The translations under genes and the position numbers were made by a program. The notes beneath the pieces were generated by a model. That model was not told where the DNA came from. It saw nothing but the letters and a program-made list of their open reading frames with translations, and searched no databases. From Chlorobiaceae bacterium (lineage in GTDB: Bacteria; Bacteroidota; Chlorobiia; Chlorobiales; Chlorobiaceae), in the NCBI GenBank assembly GCA_013334485.1, contig JAAXXL010000002.1, positions 11,490 through 75,489 on the forward strand: a stretch of 64,000 nt of DNA, written 5' to 3'. This document shows positions 11,966 through 42,607 of the stretch, in pieces. Position 1 is the stretch's first letter, and each line of letters starts with the position of its first letter.

Positions 11966-13390
11966 ATGAGCCTCATGATCAGCGTTTCCGGGATACGCGG
12001 AGTAGTCGGCGAAAGCCTTACTCCGAAAAATCTCACTACATTTGCCATGGCCTTTGCCTCATGGATTCTTCGCCATAAACAGGAACGTCCGGCTGCCAAT
12101 GCTGATACACGTCCGAGGATAGTGATCGGAAGGGATACAAGGCCGACAGGAAAGGCGATCGGCGATCTGGTCAGTAATGTTCTGGTACTTTCGGGCTGTG
12201 ACGTAATCGATCTTGATATCGCAACAACTCCTACCGTTGAAATTGCCGTCACATCCGAATGTGCTGACGGCGGACTGATCATTACCGCTTCCCACAACCC
12301 GGTTGCATGGAATGCGCTGAAAATGCTCAACTACCGTGGTGAGTTTCTGACTGCCACAGAGGTGGATGAGCTGCTTGAAATTGCAGACAAAGAAGAGTTT
12401 TATTCGGCGGGATGGGATCATATCGGCTCCATCACCCATGACGGACGTTATGATGACCTGCACATCGATAAAATCCTTCTTCTCCCCTTTGTTGATACTG
12501 GAGCAATAGCTAAAGAACAGTTCCGGGTGCTCGTAGATTGTGTTGAGGGCGCCGGTTATGCGGTGGTACCAAAGCTGTGTAAAAAGCTCGGCATGGAGCA
12601 TATTGTTTCTGTTGCCTGCGGCGGCAGCGGCCTCTTCCCGCGTAATCCTGAACCGATAGAGGAGAATCTTTCAGAAACCATCACCGAACTTGAAAAGAGC
12701 GGATGCGATTTTGCCATTGTTGTTGATCCCGATGTTGACCGGCTTGCTCTGATCTGTGAGGACGGTACCCTTTTCGGAGAAGAGTATACCCTTGTGGCCT
12801 GTGCAGACTTTTATCTTAAACAGAACCGGGGTGCTGTAGCAAACAACCTCTCCAGCAGCCGGGCGCTGAGAGACATTGCCGGAAGGTACGGCGTCGAATG
12901 CTACAGTGCTAAAGTTGGTGAAGCCAATGTGATTGAGGTTATGAAAGAGAAAGCAGTGGTCATTGGTGGCGAAGGCAATGGCGGCATTATTCTTCCCGAA
13001 CTTCATTACGGAAGGGACGCTCTGGTCGGCATTGCTCTCTTTGTCCAGGCCTTCACCCACTGGCGATCAACACACCATAAAGGCTCTCTTTCAGCATTCA
13101 GAAAAGAGTTCCCGGACTATGTAATGTCAAAGCAGAAAACAACGCTCGGAAAAACTGACCGCTCATCGCTGGAGAATATTCTGACCGATATTTCCCTGCA
13201 ATACCCTGAAGCCGAATCAAACGCCGCTGACGGCCTGAAACTTGATTTTGCCGACAGTTGGGTACATCTGCGTCCGTCAAATACAGAACCGATTATCCGG
13301 ATCTATTCCGAAGCACCCACAAAAGAGGAGGCTGAAGCGCTTGCCAATAAACTTAAAGGTGATATTGAGAAGAGAACAAATGGGCATTAA
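11966..13390 (+). CDS. glmM: Alpha-D-phosphohexomutase (phosphoglucosamine mutase / PMM-PGM family)
   Basis: SVSGIRG, IGRDTR, catalytic ITASHNP, metal loop [28 protein letters not shown]; substrate assignment is less certain than the family. Confidence 0.8.
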
Positions 13391-13428
13391 TTGTCAGGAA
13401 ACTGCAGGCATCTCCTGCATGAAAAATC

Positions 13429-15264
13429 ATGAGTAAAGCTGCGAGAGAGAGTTTCCGTACCCAACTGGACGAAACACTTGGAAAAGAGAATAAAGGTTCG
13501 GTAGACCGCTATATCGTCTCCCGCCTCTTCGCCTATATCAAGCCGTTCAAAACTCTGGTAGCCGCATCTGTTGCGATCACTATTGCCGGCTCTTTTCTCG
13601 GACCGCTTCGGCCATACCTGACAAAAATTGCCATCGACGACCATATCGCCCATGGCGACCTCAGGGGGCTCGCCTTTATCAGCATCCTGCTTGCGGGCGC
13701 AATAGTGCTTGACGGCATCAAGCAGTATATCACCACCTGGTTAACCCAGATTATCGGCCAGAAGGCTGTATTCAACCTACGGATGGATATTTTTTCCCAT
13801 CTGCAAAAACTGCCGGCACGGTTTTATGACCGCAACCCGATAGGACGCTTGATTACAAGAACAACAAGTGACGTTGAATCACTCAACGAGATGCTCTCAA
13901 GCGGCATCATCACAATTCTCGGTGATATCCTGCAACTCTTTTTCATTGTGGTTTTGATGGCCTGGATTGACTGGCAATTGACCCTCATTGTGCTCGGCAT
14001 TCTCCCGATCATGCTCTATGCAACCATCCTGTTTAAAAACAGGGTACGTGTTGCGTTTCAGGATGTCAGAACCCATCTTGCGCGTTTGAACACCTTCTTT
14101 CAGGAGCATATAACCGGCATGAGCATCGTACAGCTCTTCAACCGCGAAGAGCGGGAGTTTGAGCACTATGCCGCCATCAACAGCGATCACCGGGATGCAA
14201 ACATCCGCACGGTTTTTTATTTTTCGATTTACTATCCCCTGATTGAAGTGCTGAGCGCTGCGGCTGCCGGTCTGGTTATCTGGTACAGCGGTGTCCGCCT
14301 GCTCAAGGCCGACCTTACCATTGGAGTTGTCATCTCGTTTGTTCAGTACATCTGGCTCTTTTTCCGACCCCTTCAGCACCTTTCCGACCGCTTCAATGTT
14401 ATTCAGACGGCTATTGCCGGATCAGACCGTATTTTCAGACTGCTTGATGAGAAGGAGGGCATTGAAAACCCTGCCGAAGTGCAGCCCATCTCAACCTTCC
14501 GCGACAAAATCAGCTTCAGCAACGTCTGGTTCGCCTACGATGGCGAAAACTGGATACTGAAGGATATCTCCTTCGATATCCGGCATGGCGAAAAAATTGC
14601 CATTGTAGGGGCTACCGGCAGCGGAAAAACCTCAATCATCAATATTCTCTCTAAACTCTACCCCTTCAGCAAGGGCTCTATCACCATTGACGGCACTCCG
14701 ATTCAGAAAATCGAGGCGGGCTCGCTGAGAAAACTGGTAGGGGTGGTCATGCAGGATGTCTTTCTCTTTTCCGGCACCATTCGCGAAAACCTCGCCTTCG
14801 GCAATCCCGATGTCTCCGATGAGGCTCTGCGGGAAGCCGCAAAAGTGGTTGGCGCCGACCGGTTTATTGATCTGCTCCCCGGAAGTTACGAGTACAGAGT
14901 GCTTGAAAACGGTACCGGACTCTCCTCCGGTCAGAAACAGTTGATTGCCTTCGTTCGGGCGCTCCTCTACAATCCGGAAATTCTGGTACTTGATGAAGCA
15001 ACCAGCTCCGTTGACACTGAAACCGAGACGCTGATTGATTCGGCAACAGCACGCCTCATGAGTGAGCGCACCTCCATTATTATTGCCCACCGGCTCTCAA
15101 CCGTTCAGAAAGCCGACCGGATCATTGTACTGCACAAGGGTGTGATACGTGAAACCGGCAACCATCAGGAGCTTCTGGCAAAACGGGGCCTTTACTACAA
15201 ACTCTACCTCCTACAGCACCCCGAACAGACCACCCAGACTGCATCGGGAACACCGCAGCAATAG
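13429..15264 (+). CDS. ABC transporter, fused TMD + ATPase (type IV exporter)
   Basis: Six TM segments, Walker A GATGSGKT, signature LSSGQKQ, Walker B LVLDEATS, IAHRLST. Confidence 0.93.
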   Translation: MSKAARESFRTQLDETLGKENKGSVDRYIVSRLFAYIKPFKTLVAASVAITIAGSFLGPLRPYLTKIAIDDHIAHGDLRGLAFISILLAGAIVLDGIKQYITTWLTQIIGQKAVFNLRMDIFSHLQKLPARFYDRNPIGRLITRTTSDVESLNEMLSSGIITILGDILQLFFIVVLMAWIDWQLTLIVLGILPIMLYATILFKNRVRVAFQDVRTHLARLNTFFQEHITGMSIVQLFNREEREFEHYAAINSDHRDANIRTVFYFSIYYPLIEVLSAAAAGLVIWYSGVRLLKADLTIGVVISFVQYIWLFFRPLQHLSDRFNVIQTAIAGSDRIFRLLDEKEGIENPAEVQPISTFRDKISFSNVWFAYDGENWILKDISFDIRHGEKIAIVGATGSGKTSIINILSKLYPFSKGSITIDGTPIQKIEAGSLRKLVGVVMQDVFLFSGTIRENLAFGNPDVSDEALREAAKVVGADRFIDLLPGSYEYRVLENGTGLSSGQKQLIAFVRALLYNPEILVLDEATSSVDTETETLIDSATARLMSERTSIIIAHRLSTVQKADRIIVLHKGVIRETGNHQELLAKRGLYYKLYLLQHPEQTTQTASGTPQQ

Positions 15265-15277
15265 AATCCTCTTCCCC

Positions 15278-15349
15278 TGTCATCCCGAACGCATGTGAGG
15301 GATCTGATTATCGTGCAAAAATGATCCCTCCTTTCAGTTCGGGATGACA
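15278..15349. repeat. REP/REPIN-like nested palindrome
   Basis: TGTCATCCCGAAC (15278-15290) / GTTCGGGATGACA (15337-15349) perfect IR; inner GAGGGATC (15297-15304) / GATCCCTC (15323-15330); partial extra copy CGGATGACAA at 15358-15367. Confidence 0.8.
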
Positions 15350-15384
15350 AAAAAATCCGGATGACAACTGGGCGTCTCTATTTC

Positions 15385-15402
15385 TTGTCGTGAGCGGTTT
15401 GA
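15385..15402 (+). repeat. 18-bp inverted repeat, left copy (TTGTCGTGAGCGGTTTGA)
   Basis: Exact reverse complement of 16887-16904. Confidence 0.9.
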
Positions 15403-15444
15403 AGATTATTGAACAACGAAACAGACGAAATTACACGAAATAAT

Positions 15445-15470
15445 GTAGGGGCGATCCTGTGTGATCGTCC
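15445..15470 (+). repeat. GTAG-type REP-like palindrome
   Basis: GTAG followed by a GGGCGATC/GATCGTCC imperfect stem, the usual REP layout of 5' tetranucleotide plus hairpin. Confidence 0.65.
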
Positions 15471-15486
15471 TTTTTGGCGATTTTAA

Positions 15487-15515
15487 TCTTCGTCCTTGAT
15501 GTCCTTTTAGTCCTT
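15487..15515 (+). repeat. 9-bp periodic microrepeat (NNNGTCCTT x3)
   Basis: TTCGTCCTT GATGTCCTT TTAGTCCTT; shares TCTTCGTCCTTG with 35216-35227 (reverse complement). Confidence 0.75.
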
Positions 15516-15571
15516 TTTTAAAGCCCTTAAGCGATAAAATCTAACTGCGCAACAGGTTAACAAAAATACCG

Positions 15572-16840
15572 TTACAAACTGCTGTCGCGGAGCACACTCA
15601 CCGGCTCCAGCTTCGCCGCTCTTGCTGACGGCAGAATCGCGGCAAGCGTGCTGATAAGAACGGTCACCCCGATGACTATAAAAAAATAGATGGGGTTGTA
15701 GGACATACTGAACCCTGTTTTGGTCAGAGGCCCCTGGGAACTCTCAACCGGAAGGCTGGCAAAGAGGTTGATTGAACCTATGGCAAGAACACCACCCGCA
15801 AGAGCACCGGCCAGACCAACAATAAATCCCTCAAGAACAAACATGCCGACAAGCTGCAGGGCTGAAAAGCCGAACGACTTCATGATGGCAATGTCGCGAC
15901 TCTTTTCAAAAACCGTAGTGACAAGAATATTGGCAACTCCGAAACCTGAAACAACGCCGACAAAGGCAACAAGAGAGAAGACGATATAGCCAATACGTTT
16001 AAAAAGAGAGAGCACACTCGCATTCTCCTCCTGCCAGGTGATGCAGCGGTATCCGGTTATCTTTTCCAGCTCTTTTGAAAGTGCCGCATTGTTAAACGGA
16101 TCGGCGACCTTTAAAGCAATGCCCGATACCTTGTTGGCCGGAAGGCCCTCAATAATCTGACCAAGCTTGAGAGAGACAAAAACGCCATTATCAACAGCAT
16201 TGACGCCTGAAAAAAAGATACCGGCAACCTTGCATTGACGGCTCTTTCCGGAAGAGGGAATAATAACCACGTCATCACCAAGAACAAGATTCATATCCCT
16301 TGCAACCGTACGCCCCACCAGAAGAGCATTGGGTGTTTTTTCATAGAGAGTAATATCACCGGAAGTAAGCTTTTTACGGATTCCGCTGATGGCATCTTCC
16401 CTGTCAATCATGACTCCCTTGAGCAGAAGGGGCTGGTTACGGCTCCCCTTTACCGCCATAACCTGCGACAGAACATAGGGAGAGGCGGCAACAATCCGTT
16501 TATTATACTGGGGCAGGCTGAAAACACCGAGAATCTGGCCATAATTGCGCACCTCATCACGATCCAGCTTCTGGATATTATCCTCAACAATCGCAACAGA
16601 GGACTCCTTTTGGCCCGCAAGAATATTGACCGGCACAGGGTTCAGCTTCTCCCCTTTCACGGTTATATGTGGGGCAACGTTGACAATGGTTTCAATAAAG
16701 GAGTCAAGCAAACCGCGAGTCAGAGAGTTGGTGGTAATGAGCACCATGGTGCTCACCGCTACACCGAATATGGTTGTAAGGGTCTGCTTCCGCCGTCCAA
16801 GCAAATGCCGGACAGCTATATCGAACAATGTTTTCAGCAT
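15572..16840 (-). CDS. ABC transporter permease, FtsX/MacB/LolE family
   Basis: N-terminal TM, large periplasmic domain, C-terminal EKSRDIAIMKSFG and LPSARAAKLEPVSVLR motifs. Confidence 0.9.
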   Translation of the reverse strand: MLKTLFDIAVRHLLGRRKQTLTTIFGVAVSTMVLITTNSLTRGLLDSFIETIVNVAPHITVKGEKLNPVPVNILAGQKESSVAIVEDNIQKLDRDEVRNYGQILGVFSLPQYNKRIVAASPYVLSQVMAVKGSRNQPLLLKGVMIDREDAISGIRKKLTSGDITLYEKTPNALLVGRTVARDMNLVLGDDVVIIPSSGKSRQCKVAGIFFSGVNAVDNGVFVSLKLGQIIEGLPANKVSGIALKVADPFNNAALSKELEKITGYRCITWQEENASVLSLFKRIGYIVFSLVAFVGVVSGFGVANILVTTVFEKSRDIAIMKSFGFSALQLVGMFVLEGFIVGLAGALAGGVLAIGSINLFASLPVESSQGPLTKTGFSMSYNPIYFFIVIGVTVLISTLAAILPSARAAKLEPVSVLRDSSL

Positions 16841-16886
16841 GAAGAAAAAATCGGCAGTCCAGGTAAATGGTTAATAACAGAGGCAC

Positions 16887-16904
16887 TCAAACCGCTCACG
16901 ACAA
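16887..16904 (-). repeat. 18-bp inverted repeat, right copy (TCAAACCGCTCACGACAA)
   Basis: Exact reverse complement of 15385-15402. Confidence 0.9.
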
Positions 16905-16923
16905 TTAATCGCGTTGCACAGGC

Positions 16924-17427
16924 TTATCGAATGACAATTTCAGCCTGTGCATCAAGTCTGAACCCCTTGGTTCTTTCAAAGAAAGCCTTTTTCTCGGCAG
17001 AATCAATGACTGTGAAATTTGGACGCTTTTTGTTGCAGGCATAAGCCTTTTTGTACTTGAACGCTGCAAGATTGTGAGTCGCAGAAAGCAGCCTGATCGT
17101 ATTCTCTAACTGACTTGTCGCTTTGGAAAGCCAGCCGCCGGTACCTTGCTTTTTCAGCTCAACCAAAAAGAGGTTGTTCGAAAAGGTAAGCATACCGTCA
17201 CAACTGCTCTCCTTATCCTTTGTTCCTTGTTTCAGAATAATAATGCAGTTATCAATCGCGGTAAATGAAATTGCTCTCTGATTGTTGTTGATAACCGTTG
17301 CAATCCACCTCTCCTTGTTACTGGCATCTGTGTACGCTTTTGTCCCATCCTGCTCATCACAGATCCCGAAAATCGCAGTACGTCTTGAAGGTTCTCTGCA
17401 AACTGTTTCAAAAAAATTCAGACTCAT
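16924..17427 (-). CDS. Hypothetical protein, putative PD-(D/E)xK nuclease fold
   Basis: CDGML...LFLVELK (D77, E90, K92) followed by a KATSQL helix; start overlaps the ATPase stop (ATGA). Confidence 0.7.
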   Translation of the reverse strand: MSLNFFETVCREPSRRTAIFGICDEQDGTKAYTDASNKERWIATVINNNQRAISFTAIDNCIIILKQGTKDKESSCDGMLTFSNNLFLVELKKQGTGGWLSKATSQLENTIRLLSATHNLAAFKYKKAYACNKKRPNFTVIDSAEKKAFFERTKGFRLDAQAEIVIR

Positions 17428-18671
17428 AGCTCCTGCTCTACTTCAAGAAGTGCATCAAAAAGCTGATTCCCTTCCGCCAGCATATCATTTAAATAATTTC
17501 GGTCAGATGGAATGCCATCAACAGAAGCCAGTTTTGTAATAACGCCATCGGCTTCATCCAGTTGAAACACAACAACACTATCTCCTGACAGCAATGCTTG
17601 TTCAGGAATCAGCTTGTACAATTTTGGAAGTAACTCTCCTTTCTTTGGCGATTGCATTAAGAGACCTTCCAGATATTTTCCCTGTATTGCTATGCTTAAA
17701 TAGTTGATGATGTAGGGACTATGGGTAGTCATTATCAATTTGTTGCCCGCATTCATACCATTGAAACCAAGCAGGCTTTGAAGAATTTGCCATTGGGAAG
17801 CTGGAAACAAATTCTGTTCCGGCTCTTCAACAATGTTTACAAAGGCTGTTTTGTTGAATTTTGACGAAAGAACCGAGAGAGCAACTCTTTTTTGCTCATC
17901 CGTTAAACTTTCATTACCCCATATCTCTTCCACACCTTTTTTAAAACGCTGCATCTCATCACTGCTCATCGGCTCACTACTTGACTCACTCTGCATTTTC
18001 ACTGAGTTCGCCAAATATCCAGATACCAGGTACAAGGGCACAAGTGACTGGAATCCGCTGGAAGCATCTGATAGCTTTATTTTGTAGCCGTCTCCTTTTA
18101 CATTGAGTGTATCGTTCAATTTGTCATACTCAATAGCAACGTTATTGACAGGTAGTTGTTTAACTCCTTTTAAATCATTTTTCGCATTATCAAATTCAGT
18201 CAGGAACTCCTTTAACGATGGAGAAGAGAGCTTTAACTCTTTTGGTGTTTTAACATAAGAGAGAAAGTTTCTCTCCGCAGGGACATACATAATCTGCGGG
18301 AGTGGATAGGACCGGGCAGATTTACTTTTTATAACTAATGACCCATGTTCGTACTTGATAGTGTATGCATCACCTTCATACTCAATAACGCTCTTGTCTG
18401 ATCCGTTAACTTTAAAATAGTTCTCAAGGCGATGATAACTCAAAAATTGCTTGGCAAACCTCCCCTTCTGCTCAAACCATTTCTGTTTATAATCACCCCT
18501 GACCAAAGCCTTTTCAATCCAGATAAAAGTTGCGATCAACTTTGCAACGGTACTTTTACCTGAACCCTGATTACCGATGAAAACCGTAACCTTTTTGATG
18601 TCAATCCAGCCATCATTTTCCAGACAGCCCTTCTTGATGGGACCGAATTCCCTTATTCTTATTCTGCTCAT
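17424..18671 (-). CDS. ABC-type ATPase, AAA_15/AAA_21 (AbiEii/OLD-like) family
   Basis: Walker A GNQGSGKST, YVPAER, signature-like ASSGFQS, Walker B/D-loop IVEEPEQNLFP, H-loop TTHSPY; no TM segments. Confidence 0.88.
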   Translation of the reverse strand: MSRIRIREFGPIKKGCLENDGWIDIKKVTVFIGNQGSGKSTVAKLIATFIWIEKALVRGDYKQKWFEQKGRFAKQFLSYHRLENYFKVNGSDKSVIEYEGDAYTIKYEHGSLVIKSKSARSYPLPQIMYVPAERNFLSYVKTPKELKLSSPSLKEFLTEFDNAKNDLKGVKQLPVNNVAIEYDKLNDTLNVKGDGYKIKLSDASSGFQSLVPLYLVSGYLANSVKMQSESSSEPMSSDEMQRFKKGVEEIWGNESLTDEQKRVALSVLSSKFNKTAFVNIVEEPEQNLFPASQWQILQSLLGFNGMNAGNKLIMTTHSPYIINYLSIAIQGKYLEGLLMQSPKKGELLPKLYKLIPEQALLSGDSVVVFQLDEADGVITKLASVDGIPSDRNYLNDMLAEGNQLFDALLEVEQEL

Positions 18672-18737
18672 TTTACACCAGTAAACTGTTCAAACTTTCT
18701 TCTGTTTCTCCGCCTGGCACTTATCAAAAGCAAAGCA

Positions 18738-18780
18738 CTGATTATTAATTAATCTGATTAGCATCAATCAGATCAATCTA
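18738..18780. repeat. AT-rich 9-bp periodic, partly palindromic microrepeat
   Basis: ATCAATCAG ATCAATCTA tandem (18763-18780); CTGATT/AATCAG inverted copies. Confidence 0.5.
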
Positions 18781-18909
18781 CATCTCCTCCATTCGAATCT
18801 TGATAGCTTCTATTGGAAATTGCTTTTTCTCAAATTCATCAGGCTCACCAAAGCTGCGCAACAACCCGTCAACAATCATCAACTGATCTGCCGGTTGGCG
18901 CCCTATCAT
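18778..18909 (-). pseudogene. HigA-like antitoxin remnant (43-codon ORF; similarity only over about 18781-18840)
   Basis: Manual translation ends DEFEKKQFPIEAIKIRMEEM*, which resembles the HigA motif DEYEKKHYPIEAPDPIEAIKIRMEEM; the HTH domain is absent. Confidence 0.6.
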
Positions 18910-19173
18910 CTGCTCTGTTGAATGACTCCAGTGAAATATACAGCAAATCGATTACTGAATAACTACAAGAGACAAAAAAGAGTCAGGGCAAGCGTCCGGT
19001 GTACCCAAGTTGGCCTGCGGGGGTTAATGCAAACGGAGGAGGAAAAACTGTGCAATAATGGGGTTTCAGCGCCACTTATGTTATGGCGTGCTCATGAATC
19101 TGCGATATTTTTATTAAGTTATGCTACTCATATAAAGCATCACAAATCCTGCAAGGAAGATATCCAAGACGGA

Positions 19174-20247
19174 ATGAACGATAGAGAGAGCAATATAACA
19201 ATTGAGCGCAAGCACAGCCACGTGGAGATCTGTCTTCATGGCGATATTGCCTTCAGCGGCAAAACCACCGGTTTTGAGCGCTACGAATTTGAGCACAATG
19301 CCGTGCCTGAACGCTCTTTTGCCGATATCAGCCTCTCAACAACCTTCCTTGGCAGAACCATCGCAGCTCCGCTCATGATCTCCTCCATGACGGGAGGATA
19401 CAGTGAAGCAACGTTTCTGAACCAGCGCCTTGCCGAAACGGCCGAGCAGTTCAGAATACCGCTCGGTGTCGGAAGCATGCGCCAGGCGCTTGAAAACAGT
19501 TCGCACCGCGAAAGCTTTGCCATAGTCAGAAAATACGCCCCTTCTGTTCAGATCTTTGCCAATATAGGCGCACCGGAAATAGCCAAAGGGTTGACAGAGA
19601 GCGATGTAAGCATCATGCTTGATCTGCTTGAAGCCGATGGACTCATTGTACATTTTAATGCCGCACAGGAGCTTTTTCAGCCTGAAGGCAATACTGATTT
19701 TCGCCATGTGCTTGATCATCTCAGCACGATCACCGCTAAAATCCCTGTGCCGGTTATAGCCAAAGAGGTCGGGAGCGGCATATCGGCGGAGGCAGCACGC
19801 AAGCTTGTTGAGGCCGGAGTAAAAGTGATTGATGTTGCAGGTGCTGGAGGCACCAGTTGGCAGAAAGTTGAAGAGATACGCTATACACGCCAGTTCGGTA
19901 CTGAGAACCGCTTCAGCACCCCGGCTCTTGAAGAGCTGCTGAACTGGGGAATACCTACGGCACAATGCCTGAAGGAGATCGCGGCGTTGAAAACATCGAA
20001 CAAAAATTTCAGTACCGTAGAGGTCATCGCTTCCGGTGGCATAAAGAGCGGAATAGATATTGCAAAATCGCTGGCGCTTGGCGCAAATCTTGGAGCATCG
20101 GCAGGTCAATTGCTGAAAGCTCTTCACGAAGGAGTACTTGAACTGACCATCGAATCATGGCTGAACGACCTCAGGGCCGTCATGTTTCTCACCGGAGCGG
20201 CTACAATTGAGGAGCTTCGGAGCAAAATCCTTATCATAAAACAATGA
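19174..20247 (+). CDS. fni: Type 2 isopentenyl-diphosphate Delta-isomerase (FMN-dependent)
   Basis: [55 protein letters not shown]; start revised to ATG 19174 (the ORF-track upstream extension is probably non-coding). Confidence 0.95.
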
Positions 20248-35122: not shown

Positions 35123-35189
35123 CGGAAAAAGCTCTGGTCTGAGCAATTAACAGTTTGTCGTCGAACAACCTTACCTGAAAAATGAAATA

Positions 35190-35227
35190 AAGGACAACAG
35201 GGACTTCAGGGACTACAAGGACGAAGA
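35190..35227 (+). repeat. 9-bp periodic microrepeat (ARGGACNNN x4)
   Basis: AAGGACAAC AGGGACTTC AGGGACTAC AAGGACGAA GA. Confidence 0.8.
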
Positions 35228-35253
35228 GACGACTTTCCGGCCACTCTATCCTG

Positions 35254-41596: not shown

Positions 41597-41665
41597 AAAC
41601 CGACTCAAGGGCGCCGCCCAACACAGTAATCGGGTTTCGAAATAAATAAATAAATAGAGGTGCCC

Positions 41666-42607
41666 TCAAGAAAAAACATCTTCACCGCTTACTATCCGAT
41701 CGTACAGATTCAGATAATTTTTCGCACAAACAGCAGAGGAAAAATAGGTCATGGCCCAGTCGCGACAATGTGCAGGCGAGCAGGATAGCGCTTTTTCCAG
41801 TGCCTCAGGAAACATTTCGTCCTCTGTAAATAACGCTCCAACATCGGAATTGACAAGCTCCGGAACTGATCCGCGCGGTGTTGCAATGACCGGTGTTCCC
41901 GACAGTAATGATTCAATCACTACCAGTCCGAAAGGCTCATCCCAACTGATTGGAAAGAGCAGAGCTTTGGCATTTGCAAAGTATTGTGCTTTTTCATTTC
42001 CACCTGTTTTCCCGACAAATTCAGTTCGTGGATGAAAACTATCCAACAGACCACCGGCTTTAATCAGGTCGAATCGCGATCCTCCGGCAAAAACCATAGG
42101 TATTTTGTATTCTCTCGCGAGTTTTAATGCTCGAGCCGCACCTTTTTCAGCTCGTCTTATCAGTGATAAAAACAACAGATAGTCCTTTTTTTGCTCTCTG
42201 TAAATAAACTCATCAGGTTTGATTCCGTTGTATATGAATGTTTTTTTCTGATGTCGCACAGCATGATTGGCACTTATGCATACAGTATTTACAGGTAATT
42301 TTGAGAGGTCTGGTTCATTACCATGCAGGGTAAAAAGCCAGGGCAATGTAAAATCCGATACAGGTGGCCAGCCATGAAAATGGACGATATCCACATCTTT
42401 TGGAATTGCAAGTAATGCCTGTTCATGATTATTGGCAGGAATACAAGTTACACCTTGCATGTAACTCCCTTTTGGCGCCACCAATGTAACATGATGCCCA
42501 AGTCTTGCATACTCAAGAATGAGCCATTGAACAATGCGTTCAGTACCGCCATATTTATTTACCGGCAAACGCGTATTACATACCAGGCAAATCTTTATGG
42601 GTGACAT
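41666..42607 (-). CDS. Glycosyltransferase family 4
   Basis: YGGTERIV, WDEPFGLVVIESLLSGTPVI. Confidence 0.88.
   Translation of the reverse strand: MSPIKICLVCNTRLPVNKYGGTERIVQWLILEYARLGHHVTLVAPKGSYMQGVTCIPANNHEQALLAIPKDVDIVHFHGWPPVSDFTLPWLFTLHGNEPDLSKLPVNTVCISANHAVRHQKKTFIYNGIKPDEFIYREQKKDYLLFLSLIRRAEKGAARALKLAREYKIPMVFAGGSRFDLIKAGGLLDSFHPRTEFVGKTGGNEKAQYFANAKALLFPISWDEPFGLVVIESLLSGTPVIATPRGSVPELVNSDVGALFTEDEMFPEALEKALSCSPAHCRDWAMTYFSSAVCAKNYLNLYDRIVSGEDVFS

Follow-up and report, generated by a model that had tools for sequence, protein, structure and literature searches.

An inverted 18-bp repeat around a Chlorobium ABC permease gene very probably reflects two separate, decayed MITE copies

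The window analysed here, a 64-kb (64,000-nt) stretch from a Chlorobium genome (G000) of 2.59 Mb close to C. ferrooxidans, contains an ABC permease gene bracketed by a perfect inverted repeat, which raises the question of whether the repeat delimits a unit that carries the permease or can turn it around. The 18-mer TTGTCGTGAGCGGTTTGA lies at 15385-15402 on the forward strand and its exact reverse complement at 16887-16904 on the minus strand; direct reading and a pattern search both gave zero mismatches, and the search found no third copy in the window at up to three mismatches. As a sequence-only reading of this DNA had stated, the two copies lie 1.5 kb apart and enclose the whole permease ORF (15572-16840, minus strand), and the right copy ends 19 bp from the stop codon (16924-16926) of a gene for a 167-aa nuclease. 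The same reading held that an 18-bp match is improbable by chance. This is correct for random sequence, and shuffles of the window gave a mean of 0.02 18-mer matches, with two matches in none of 100; it does not hold for this genome, which contains 14 exact copies. The likeness of the two sites also runs outward from the 18-mers, over 35 nt at 80% identity (15368-15402 versus 16887-16921). The features discussed below are as follows.

15278-15349: a second dispersed palindromic repeat (TGTCATCCCGAAC...GTTCGGGATGACA), unrelated to the MITE, between the exporter stop codon and the MITE
15370-15571, forward strand: near-complete class-2 MITE copy, filling the intergenic space where the ABC exporter and permease genes converge
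15385-15402, forward strand: left 18-mer copy, a sub-terminal arm of the MITE
15403-15530, forward strand: class-2 interior, with ACGAAA-type repeats, a hairpin (GGGGCGATC...GATCGTCC) followed by TTTTT, and GTCCTTG-type repeats
15572-16840, minus strand: FtsX/MacB-type ABC permease gene, 422 aa (Pfam FtsX 2.9e-17, MacB_PCD 6.7e-11)
16842-19100: lineage-specific island, a 2.26-kb insertion relative to genomes G008 and G002, from BLAST breakpoints and spacer sequences
16883-16919, minus strand: truncated MITE left end, 37 nt (left-end profile matches 16917-16885, E=9.8e-6)
35180-35246, minus strand: class-2 interior fragment elsewhere in the window, with GTCC/GGAC repeats (nhmmer class-2 match, E=2.3e-4)
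41612-41666, forward strand: solo MITE right end elsewhere in the window (right-end profile, E=3.6e-11)

We conclude with high confidence that both 18-mers represent one sub-terminal segment of a MITE, present here in two decayed copies that are independent of each other; they do not form a unit that carries the permease, and very probably not one that can invert it. Across the 2.59-Mb genome the 18-mer occurs 14 times exactly, 43 times at up to two mismatches and about 53 times at up to three, and in the aligned copies it always sits in one register within a longer repeat, as the sub-terminal arm of a MITE directly inside its 15-nt transposase-type terminus. For 53 copies spread over 2.59 Mb, chance should give about 1.6 pairs no more than 1.5 kb apart in the whole genome, about 0.8 of them inverted; for the 14 exact copies, the expectation for chance inverted pairs at this spacing falls to about 0.05 per genome. 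That both 18-mers are letter-perfect though the 35-nt flanks agree at 80% counts against chance pairing. The remainder of the MITE explanation is independent of this low expectation.

The family to which both copies belong is a small, non-coding, high-copy element scattered more than 100 times through the genome, with many fragments besides the full copies. Its 142-nt form gave 100 nhmmer matches, 51-52 of them full length; a long variant (class 2) of 190-240 nt has about 14 near-full copies, and 12-mers of the terminus occur 354 times at up to two mismatches. The terminal inverted repeats read GGGCRCCTCTAT..., and an alignment of 48 full copies gives GGGCRCCTCTATWWATTGT... as the left end and ...ACAAATWWATAGAGGYGCCC as the right end, with 97% pairing in the outer stem. 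Insertion left a target-site duplication of exactly 4 bp: identical 4-mers stand directly outside GGGC...GCCC in 24 of 42 bounded copies, while a 5-bp duplication was seen in 0 of the 42, and 4-mer identity at shifted offsets (-2 to +3) was almost absent, at 0 of 42 for each offset tested. Comparison with relatives gave filled and empty sites directly. A site on contig C77 is filled in this genome and in G008 (C. ferrooxidans DSM 13031) and empty in G019, which has a single AATA; one on contig C15 is filled here and empty in G008, which has a single TTAT. Among the 14 insertion sites compared, two are filled in this genome only (G008 and G019 empty) and one is common to G008 only, and of the remainder some are common to two or all three of G008, G019 and G049. 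A literature search by sequence strings and organism found no earlier description of the family.

The ends of the MITE match those of an autonomous element found in related genomes. An IS of about 1.3 kb encoding an NF033581 IS5-family transposase is present in the same-genus genomes G004, G010, G013, G022 and G023 (258-287 bits; cut-off 140), and the NF033581 ORFs in these five genomes are bordered by GGG[CT]ACCTCTAT.... At locus L315 the IS termini are identical to the MITE termini over 18-19 nt, and the IS is flanked by 4-bp duplications, TAAA at L314 and TTAA at L323. The family is a MITE derived from an IS5-family IS rather than a REP. Its interior is no internally deleted IS but a hairpin module in its own right, one that in Proteobacteria and Nitrospirota is joined to ends of different types. 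We found no autonomous NF033581 IS in this genome, nor in the other two most MITE-rich genomes, G008 and G019; the assembly under study is a 96%-complete draft in 130 contigs, many of which break in MITE repeats, and a transposase gene could be missing from it. That many contigs end in these repeats is an assembly effect. When left and right ends paired at 0.4-5 kb and solo termini were inspected for an autonomous element within this genome, all proved to be ordinary genes lying between separate MITEs. A scan of the complete genome G014 with the terminus pattern met too few copies to reveal an IS in that way.

The left copy is recognisable over almost its whole length. A class-2 query, taken from a copy on contig C79, matches 15368-15517 (nhmmer, E=1.2e-19); the match to the left-end profile spans 15370-15402 (E=2.2e-6). 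Its left terminus, GGGCGTCTCTATTTC, is intact, with 13 of 15 positions as in the consensus, whereas its right terminus, decayed to 7 of 16, extends precisely to the permease stop codon. The "downstream repeat cluster" of the sequence-only reading is real and corresponds, in the class-2 alignment, to the class-2 interior at 15403-15530. As a whole the element folds no better than shuffled sequence (z = -0.44 and +0.17). Its right end, ...GCGCAACAGGTTAACAAAAATACCG, recurs in G008, whose exporter-permease spacer has another MITE variant at this site; in G002, G011 and G014 this spacer contains no repeat. The palindromic repeat on its exporter side belongs to a family with 51 nhmmer matches over both strands, which represent about 30 genomic loci.

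The right copy is a stump. It consists of the terminus GTGCAACGCGATTAA at 16905-16919 (12 of 15 positions as in the consensus), the 18-mer at 16887-16904 and GTGC at 16883-16886; no match to the right-end profile was found near it, and it is without core and right end. The stump begins 4 nt past the nuclease stop codon and is oriented like the nuclease gene. The 2.26-kb island in which it lies also contains a short remnant and the ATPase/nuclease candidate, a pair of genes at 16924-18671. Comparison with G084 and G050 showed that in G084 the island occupies the same spacer without the MITE stump.

These observations suggest the following history. The MITE, 142 nt long or, in the long variant, 190-240 nt, folds as one long hairpin and was very probably moved in trans by an IS5-family transposase, whose staggered cuts leave the 4-bp duplication. 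The left copy very probably reached the spacer that follows the permease stop codon at a time when this lineage had not yet split from C. ferrooxidans, its right end decaying since then, and the right copy very probably inserted 4 nt behind the nuclease stop codon of the later-acquired island and then lost everything past its first 37 nt. The facing arrangement of the two copies is very probably accidental. Both are most likely inert, since they have a single intact end between them and the assembly contains no cognate transposase.

Two independent insertions of one repeat family had been among the possibilities raised by the sequence-only reading, and that proposal is supported here, except that the family is a MITE and not the "REP" then envisaged. 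The finding that the reading had said would speak for an ordinary dispersed repeat is also what we see: the genome holds many unpaired 18-mers, and the permease position is invariant. In all 15 same-genus genomes in which the genes were matched, the exporter (forward), permease (minus) and FMN-dehydrogenase (forward) genes keep identical order and orientation. The permease is a resident core gene, not cargo.

A broader interpretation of the 18-mer, which we regard as possible though improbable, is that it forms the basal arm of a functional single-stranded module, which might act as an RNA at gene 3' ends (sX9-type), a transposition intermediate or a protein-binding site, and which different transposon ends would have captured repeatedly; the coreless arms at the permease would then be relics. 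At the apex is a core, GGAGCGCAGRAACCGGARTGTAC-loop-GTACATGAGGATTYCGAGCACC with purine-rich internal loops, that hardly varies across Chlorobiaceae, Nitrospirota and many Beta- and Gammaproteobacteria, while the stems flanking it vary by compensatory substitutions and the transposon ends vary by lineage. Selection also appears to act on the fold of one strand only. A covariance model of the module scores 89 bits on one strand and 9 on the other, and at one stem pair the 37 sequences have G-U in 19, A-U in 14 and G-C in 3; the minimum-free-energy strand preference over 69 diverse copies is weak (-66.1 versus -63.8 kcal/mol, p=0.009), and G-U counts point the opposite way. The core was also considered as a hammerhead or a K-turn, which by eye it does not fit and which no tool supported. 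No MITE core was found in the window, and both 18-mer copies of the pair are coreless.

A cis-regulatory role, in which the 18-mer would serve at both sites as an operator or promoter element and might, for instance, co-regulate the permease and a small transcript from the left element, appears very unlikely to us. The right copy does lie 46 nt upstream of the permease start codon, a hairpin with a T-run follows the left copy on the same strand after about 45 nt, and a related Xanthomonas element is on record as a 75-nt sRNA, sX9 (PMC3300014). Against this, the 18-mers keep a fixed register within MITEs and no fixed distance to genes, no sigma-70-like promoter was called at either copy, and the permease leader is wholly different in G008, G002 and G084. 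Full-length copies likewise show no orientation bias with respect to neighbouring genes (15 divergent, 14 co-directional, 12 antisense, 10 convergent). A preference of the MITE right end for incoming stop codons, hinted at by crude gene calls, came to 8 versus 3 of 42 with exact boundaries, and we make no claim for it.

We find it harder still to credit the inverted 18-mers, or the 35 nt at 80% identity around them, as substrates for inversion of the permease, another possibility raised by the sequence-only reading. Such a switch would gain from perfect inverted identity over 18 bp at a 1.5-kb spacing, and it would leave the permease reading in the same direction as the ABC exporter gene, on the exporter's strand and just downstream of it. 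Yet the permease has one orientation only across relatives, none of six neighbouring ORFs (11966-20247) matches a recombinase or invertase family in Pfam, and the 167-aa ORF matches no Pfam family. Efficient RecA recombination usually needs roughly 23-27 bp, more than the 18 bp available, and with about 50 copies of the same 18-mer such recombination would scramble the genome; even a rare inversion or mobilisation in a subpopulation is probably absent.

Least probable of all is that the inverted left ends bound a composite or cargo transposon of 1.55 kb (15370-16919) that brought the permease or can move it: the termini do face outward, as in a transposon with terminal inverted repeats and in a geometry that a transposase would use, and both are recognisable (13 and 12 of 15 consensus positions), but the unit is flanked by AACT and AGGC where true copies show exact 4-bp duplications, permease place and orientation are constant in relatives most of which have no repeat there, the left site is common to G008 while the right lies in a later island and is absent from G084, and this genome has no cognate transposase. 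As the origin of the permease gene, a composite element is already refuted by the synteny. The sequence-only reading's suggestion that the repeats are element ends enclosing the permease fails on the invariant synteny and the lack of a target duplication on the unit, and its REPIN with captured cargo fails on the same evidence together with the target duplications and IS5-type ends of the family.

The assignment of the pair to two separate MITE copies removes the idea of a mobile or phase-variable ABC permease and makes the inverted repeat a by-product of a repeat-rich genome; for the locus itself, which is ordinary, the result matters little. The family has wider implications. It accounts for many contig breaks in Chlorobium draft assemblies, its insertions provide datable presence/absence markers for the iron-oxidising Chlorobium clade, and it is an example of a MITE swarm persisting in genomes without a transposase of their own. 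Its core belongs to a poorly described, cross-phylum hairpin module represented in Rfam only by the Xanthomonas sRNA sX9.

That sRNA (Rfam RF02228) is a single 75-nt Xanthomonas transcript not described as a transposon (Schmidtke et al. 2011/2012, PMC3300014). It was the sole Rfam family to respond: it matched 45 copies in the genome, on the complement of the strand written here, and every score fell below the gathering threshold of 44 bits (best score 35.5). About 40 nt of the MITE copies are nearly identical to the model consensus (AUGUAC..GUACACUCCGGUUUCUCCGC.CCGUCCGC), and the Xanthomonas loci hold the same core within hairpin elements of about 150 nt. Rfam scans gave no sX9 match at 14000-18000 of the window and, at the four full-copy loci scanned, nothing but sub-threshold sX9.

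ERIC/IRU and Correia elements were compared by profile HMM and covariance model with real E. coli and Neisseria copies. ERIC/IRU (about 127 bp) resembles the MITE as an imperfect intergenic palindrome, about 130-140 nt long, that often closely follows a stop codon and shows compensatory stem changes, and by eye short strings around the core are shared (AAGGCG...AACGCAGCA). The superfamily nhmmer profile gave no match to it even at E<=100, and homology was rejected with the covariance model (R1), which scored 7.6 bits (E=2.4) at the ERIC copy versus 89.2 bits for a Chlorobium control. Neisseria Correia elements (CREE/NEMIS) are likewise hairpin MITEs, about 105-155 nt in length, whose terminal repeats are long and whose apex carries GTAC-N5-GTAC, and pairwise alignment gave a local similarity of about 45 nt (AGGACAAGGCG...GCAGA...GTAC). 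Their termini (TATAGTGGATTAA...) differ from those of the Chlorobium MITE, and they duplicate TA, not 4 bp. The superfamily profile found no match in 114 Neisseria loci (753 kb), and the covariance model R1 scored 6.5 bits (E=4.7) at Correia copies, within background, so homology was rejected here too.

REP and REPIN sequences, which RAYT transposases (IS200/IS605-like) mobilise, are alike as dispersed intergenic palindromes with hairpin-keeping compensatory changes. REPINs have neither a target duplication nor IS5-type termini, whereas the Chlorobium MITE has both an exact 4-bp duplication and IS5-type ends. In this it corresponds to the IS5 family (NF033581; 4-bp duplication subgroup) and its derived MITEs, which likewise make an A/T-rich target duplication of 4 bp.

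The inverted repeat that brackets the permease gene is real, but there is nothing unusual about it: its two arms belong to independently inserted and since decayed copies of an IS5-mobilised MITE, of which this Chlorobium lineage carries a great many. By direct reading and pattern search, the 18-mer TTGTCGTGAGCGGTTTGA lies on the plus strand at 15385-15402 and its exact reverse complement at 16887-16904, so the sequence-only reading was correct as written on this point. It was also right that the repeat encloses the permease gene, whose ORF lies wholly between the copies, and that the right copy ends 19 bp from the stop codon of the nuclease gene. Pattern search finds no further copy in the window at up to three mismatches; in shuffled versions of the window it matches 0.02 times on average. 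The similarity of the pair extends outward for 35 nt at 80%. The relevant features of the window are as follows.

15278-15349: second dispersed palindromic repeat
15370-15571, plus strand: left copy, class-2 MITE (E=1.2e-19)
15572-16840, minus strand: FtsX/MacB-type ABC permease, 422-aa ORF
16919-16883, minus strand: right copy, MITE left end only
16924-16926: stop codon of the 167-aa ORF
35180-35246, minus strand: class-2 interior fragment with GTCC/GGAC repeats
41612-41666, plus strand: solo right end of the same MITE family (E=3.6e-11)

A genome-wide count shows the 18-mer to occur well beyond this pair. The assembly holding the window (G000; 2.59 Mb, 130 contigs, 48% G+C) contains 14 exact copies, 32 at up to one mismatch, 43 at up to two and 53 at up to three. 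Chance alone would place about 1.6 pairs of 53 copies less than 1.5 kb apart somewhere in 2.59 Mb, half of them inverted; among the listed copies, the pair on contig C20 is the sole inverted pair within 5 kb. Among public genomes, perfect matches to the 18-mer come nearly all from Chlorobium ferrooxidans DSM 13031 (G008, ~90% identical to the window at the permease locus), Chlorobium sp. KB01 and Chlorobiaceae MAGs.

When the G000 copies are lined up, the 18-mer occupies a constant register within a longer repeat. Its commonest form, class 1, is 142 nt long (GGGCACCTCTATTAA-TTGTCGTGAGCGGTTTGA-GTGCGAGGCGGACGGAGCGCAGAAACCGGAATGTAC-loop-GTACTTGAGGATTTCGAGCACCGCCCAACGAAGCAATCGAATCGCGGAACAAATTAATAGAGGTGCCC) and gives 100 nhmmer matches, 51-52 of them full length. 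Class 2, of 190-240 nt and with 14 near-full copies, shares these ends and arms but differs inside, where it has ACGAAA-type and GTCCTTG-type short repeats. Profiles of the ends recover 82 left and 105 right ends, and MITE copies hold the ends of several contigs. Deletion derivatives are numerous; the collapsed examples at C120:16301-16326, C40:1575-1615, C11:575-640 and C56:2265-2345, one a 26-nt perfect palindrome of termini only (GGGCGCCTCTATTAATAGAGACGCCC) and the others 40-80-nt mini-elements lacking the core, look like hairpin-deletion products. The MITE folds as a single long hairpin, in which two G000 subfamilies show compensatory differences (GAGCGGTTTGA with TCGAATCGCGG versus GAGAAGCCCGA with TCGGGTTTCGG). 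Double changes occur in 23 of 44 predicted pairs, with standard pairs in 97% of cells; because most trace to the split between the two subfamilies, they represent few events.

Several concordant tests establish that the family is a true MITE. If each copy is taken to run from GGGC to GCCC, the two 4-mers that adjoin it are identical in 24 of 42 cases and mostly A/T-rich (ATAA, TTAT, TAAA, TTTA, ATTA, TAAT; also ATGA and AACC); 5-bp duplications occur in none of the 42, and shifted offsets yield essentially none. We also joined the two flanks of each of 14 copies, searched for them in four sister genomes and read three places. At the C77 site, G000 and C. ferrooxidans are filled (...AATA|GGGCACC...GTGCCC|AATA...) and the sister genome G019 is uninterrupted with a single AATA; at the C15 site, G000 is filled with TTAT on both sides and C. 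ferrooxidans is empty with one TTAT. Of G008, G019 and G049, two or all three are filled at other sites, so the family was mobile both before and after these species split. It occurs in 16 of 25 genomes of the genus but not in any of the 16 sampled from the order's other genera; related copies are present in MAGs labelled Prosthecochloris and Chlorobaculum.

The source of the ends is an IS5-family element. The transposase model NCBIfam NF033581 scores above its cut-off in eight same-genus genomes, with intact frames of 347-377 aa in five (G004, G010, G013, G022 and G023; 258-287 bits, cut-off 140). These ORFs lie within ~1.3-kb elements bounded by GGG[CT]ACCTCTAT..., which are flanked by 4-bp duplications (TAAA at locus L314, TTAA at L323). 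The termini at locus L315, GGGCACCTCTATTTATT and GGGCACCTCTATAAATTG, are identical to the MITE termini over 18-19 nt; the MITE's outermost 15-19 nt are thus transposase ends of the IS5 type, and the 18-mer starts exactly where this similarity stops. MITE numbers largely fail to track the presence of the cognate transposase: NF033581 is lacking in the three genomes richest in copies (G000, G008 and G019) and in G001, which also has many, whereas it occurs in G004, G013, G010 and G023; of these, G004 and G013 have three intact copies of the IS apiece without any MITE match.

Of the readings offered for the pair, that of two independent insertions of one repeat family is supported: the family is the MITE, and the copies differ in age. 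The left copy keeps its left terminus well (GGGCGTCTCTATTTC); its right terminus, which runs exactly up to the permease stop codon, is decayed and matches the consensus at 7 of 16 positions. C. ferrooxidans has, in the same place, a MITE with a different interior and the same right end (...GCGCAACAGGTTAACAAAAATACCG-TTA), so the insertion predates the split of the two genomes and the interior was exchanged or rebuilt later. The C. ferrooxidans interior is of a third type (TTCAGCTCCGGAGGAGCGAAATATTGGTAGGCCGACGCAAGTCGG...; L078, 1330-1455), against class 2 in G000 at this one site, which suggests that interiors were swapped between MITE copies or that copies were hit repeatedly at one spot. In G002, G011 and G014 the exporter-permease spacer is short and repeat-free. 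In the window this spacer also holds a second dispersed palindromic repeat, unrelated to the MITE (~72-80 nt, TGTCATCCCGAACGCAGAGAGGGATC-loop-GATCCCTCCTTTCAGTTCGGGATGACA; ~30 G000 loci, e.g. C91:7014-7090, C3:23102-23182 and C35:47388-47467; 51 nhmmer matches, both strands counted); partial GTTCGGGATGACA repeats often follow it, and one case is nested in a 342-nt MITE copy on C3.

The right copy begins 4 nt past the stop codon of the 167-aa gene and comprises a terminus (GTGCAACGCGATTAA, 12 of 15 positions), the 18-mer and GTGC, where family similarity ends. It lies within a 2.26-kb stretch (16842-19100) that carries an ATPase/nuclease gene pair and is missing from G008 and G002. The relative G084 has the same island in the same spacer, 80% identical over 2 kb and contiguous with the permease and FMN-dehydrogenase genes; its sequence from permease start to nuclease stop is unrelated, with no MITE match. 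Since the island came later and the stump is missing in G084, the right copy is younger than the left and independent of it. The divergent permease/FMN-dehydrogenase spacer is a recurrent insertion site: the gene pair occupies it in G000, G084 (L325) and G050 (L326), with ~1.4 kb extra between pair and permease in G050, and without the island the spacer measures 113 nt in C. ferrooxidans and 36 nt in G002.

The alternative that the pair forms the ends of a MITE or composite element fails: despite termini that point outward, as transposon ends do, there is no duplication around 15370-16919 (AACT versus AGGC). Comparison of permease position and orientation finds both invariant, the gene adjacent to and convergent with the exporter 3' end in 15 of 15 same-genus genomes with matches, and the FMN-dehydrogenase gene next after the permease start wherever readable. 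A Pfam scan of six neighbouring ORFs found no recombinase gene, promoter calling gave no sigma-70-like hit at either 18-mer copy, and the fold of the entire left element is no better than that of shuffled sequence. None of these checks of synteny, flanks, recombinase, promoter and fold gives evidence of the two copies working as a unit.

The core of the class-1 hairpin has wider relatives. A degenerate 20-nt core pattern matches more than 116 loci (~17 expected by chance) in Chlorobiaceae, Xanthomonas, Herbaspirillum, Gallionella, Thiobacillus, Chitinimonas, Pseudogulbenkiania and Nitrospirota, among others, and in all these lineages the core is the tip of a ~150-nt hairpin element with covarying arms and lineage-specific termini, such as the GGGCACCTCT ends on Nitrospirota and Prosthecochloris copies. 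Across loci L082-L197 the core hardly changes among Chlorobiaceae, Nitrospirota and many Beta- and Gammaproteobacteria; what varies is the transposon ends and the apparent duplications, flanks of Xanthomonas and Chromobacteriaceae copies resembling TTA/TAA (3 bp). Among 37 diverse cores, one pair changes from G-C (22) to A-U (15) and another is G-U (19), A-U (14) or G-C (3), the latter pattern fitting folding of one strand only. Our covariance model of these cores, R1, gives an unseen G000 copy 89.2 bits on one strand against 9.2 on its complement. Rfam responds below threshold only, with sX9 (RF02228; best 35.5 bits, threshold 44), reported as a 75-nt Xanthomonas sRNA (PMC3300014); the matches lie on the opposite strand in the left half of full MITE copies.

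Neisseria Correia elements and ERIC are like the Chlorobium MITE in behaviour, with no significant similarity in sequence or structure. Against real copies of both, the profile HMM found nothing and the covariance model, run with filters off, gave only 6.5-7.6 bits (E 2.4-4.7), within background; they are therefore analogues in behaviour rather than demonstrated relatives.
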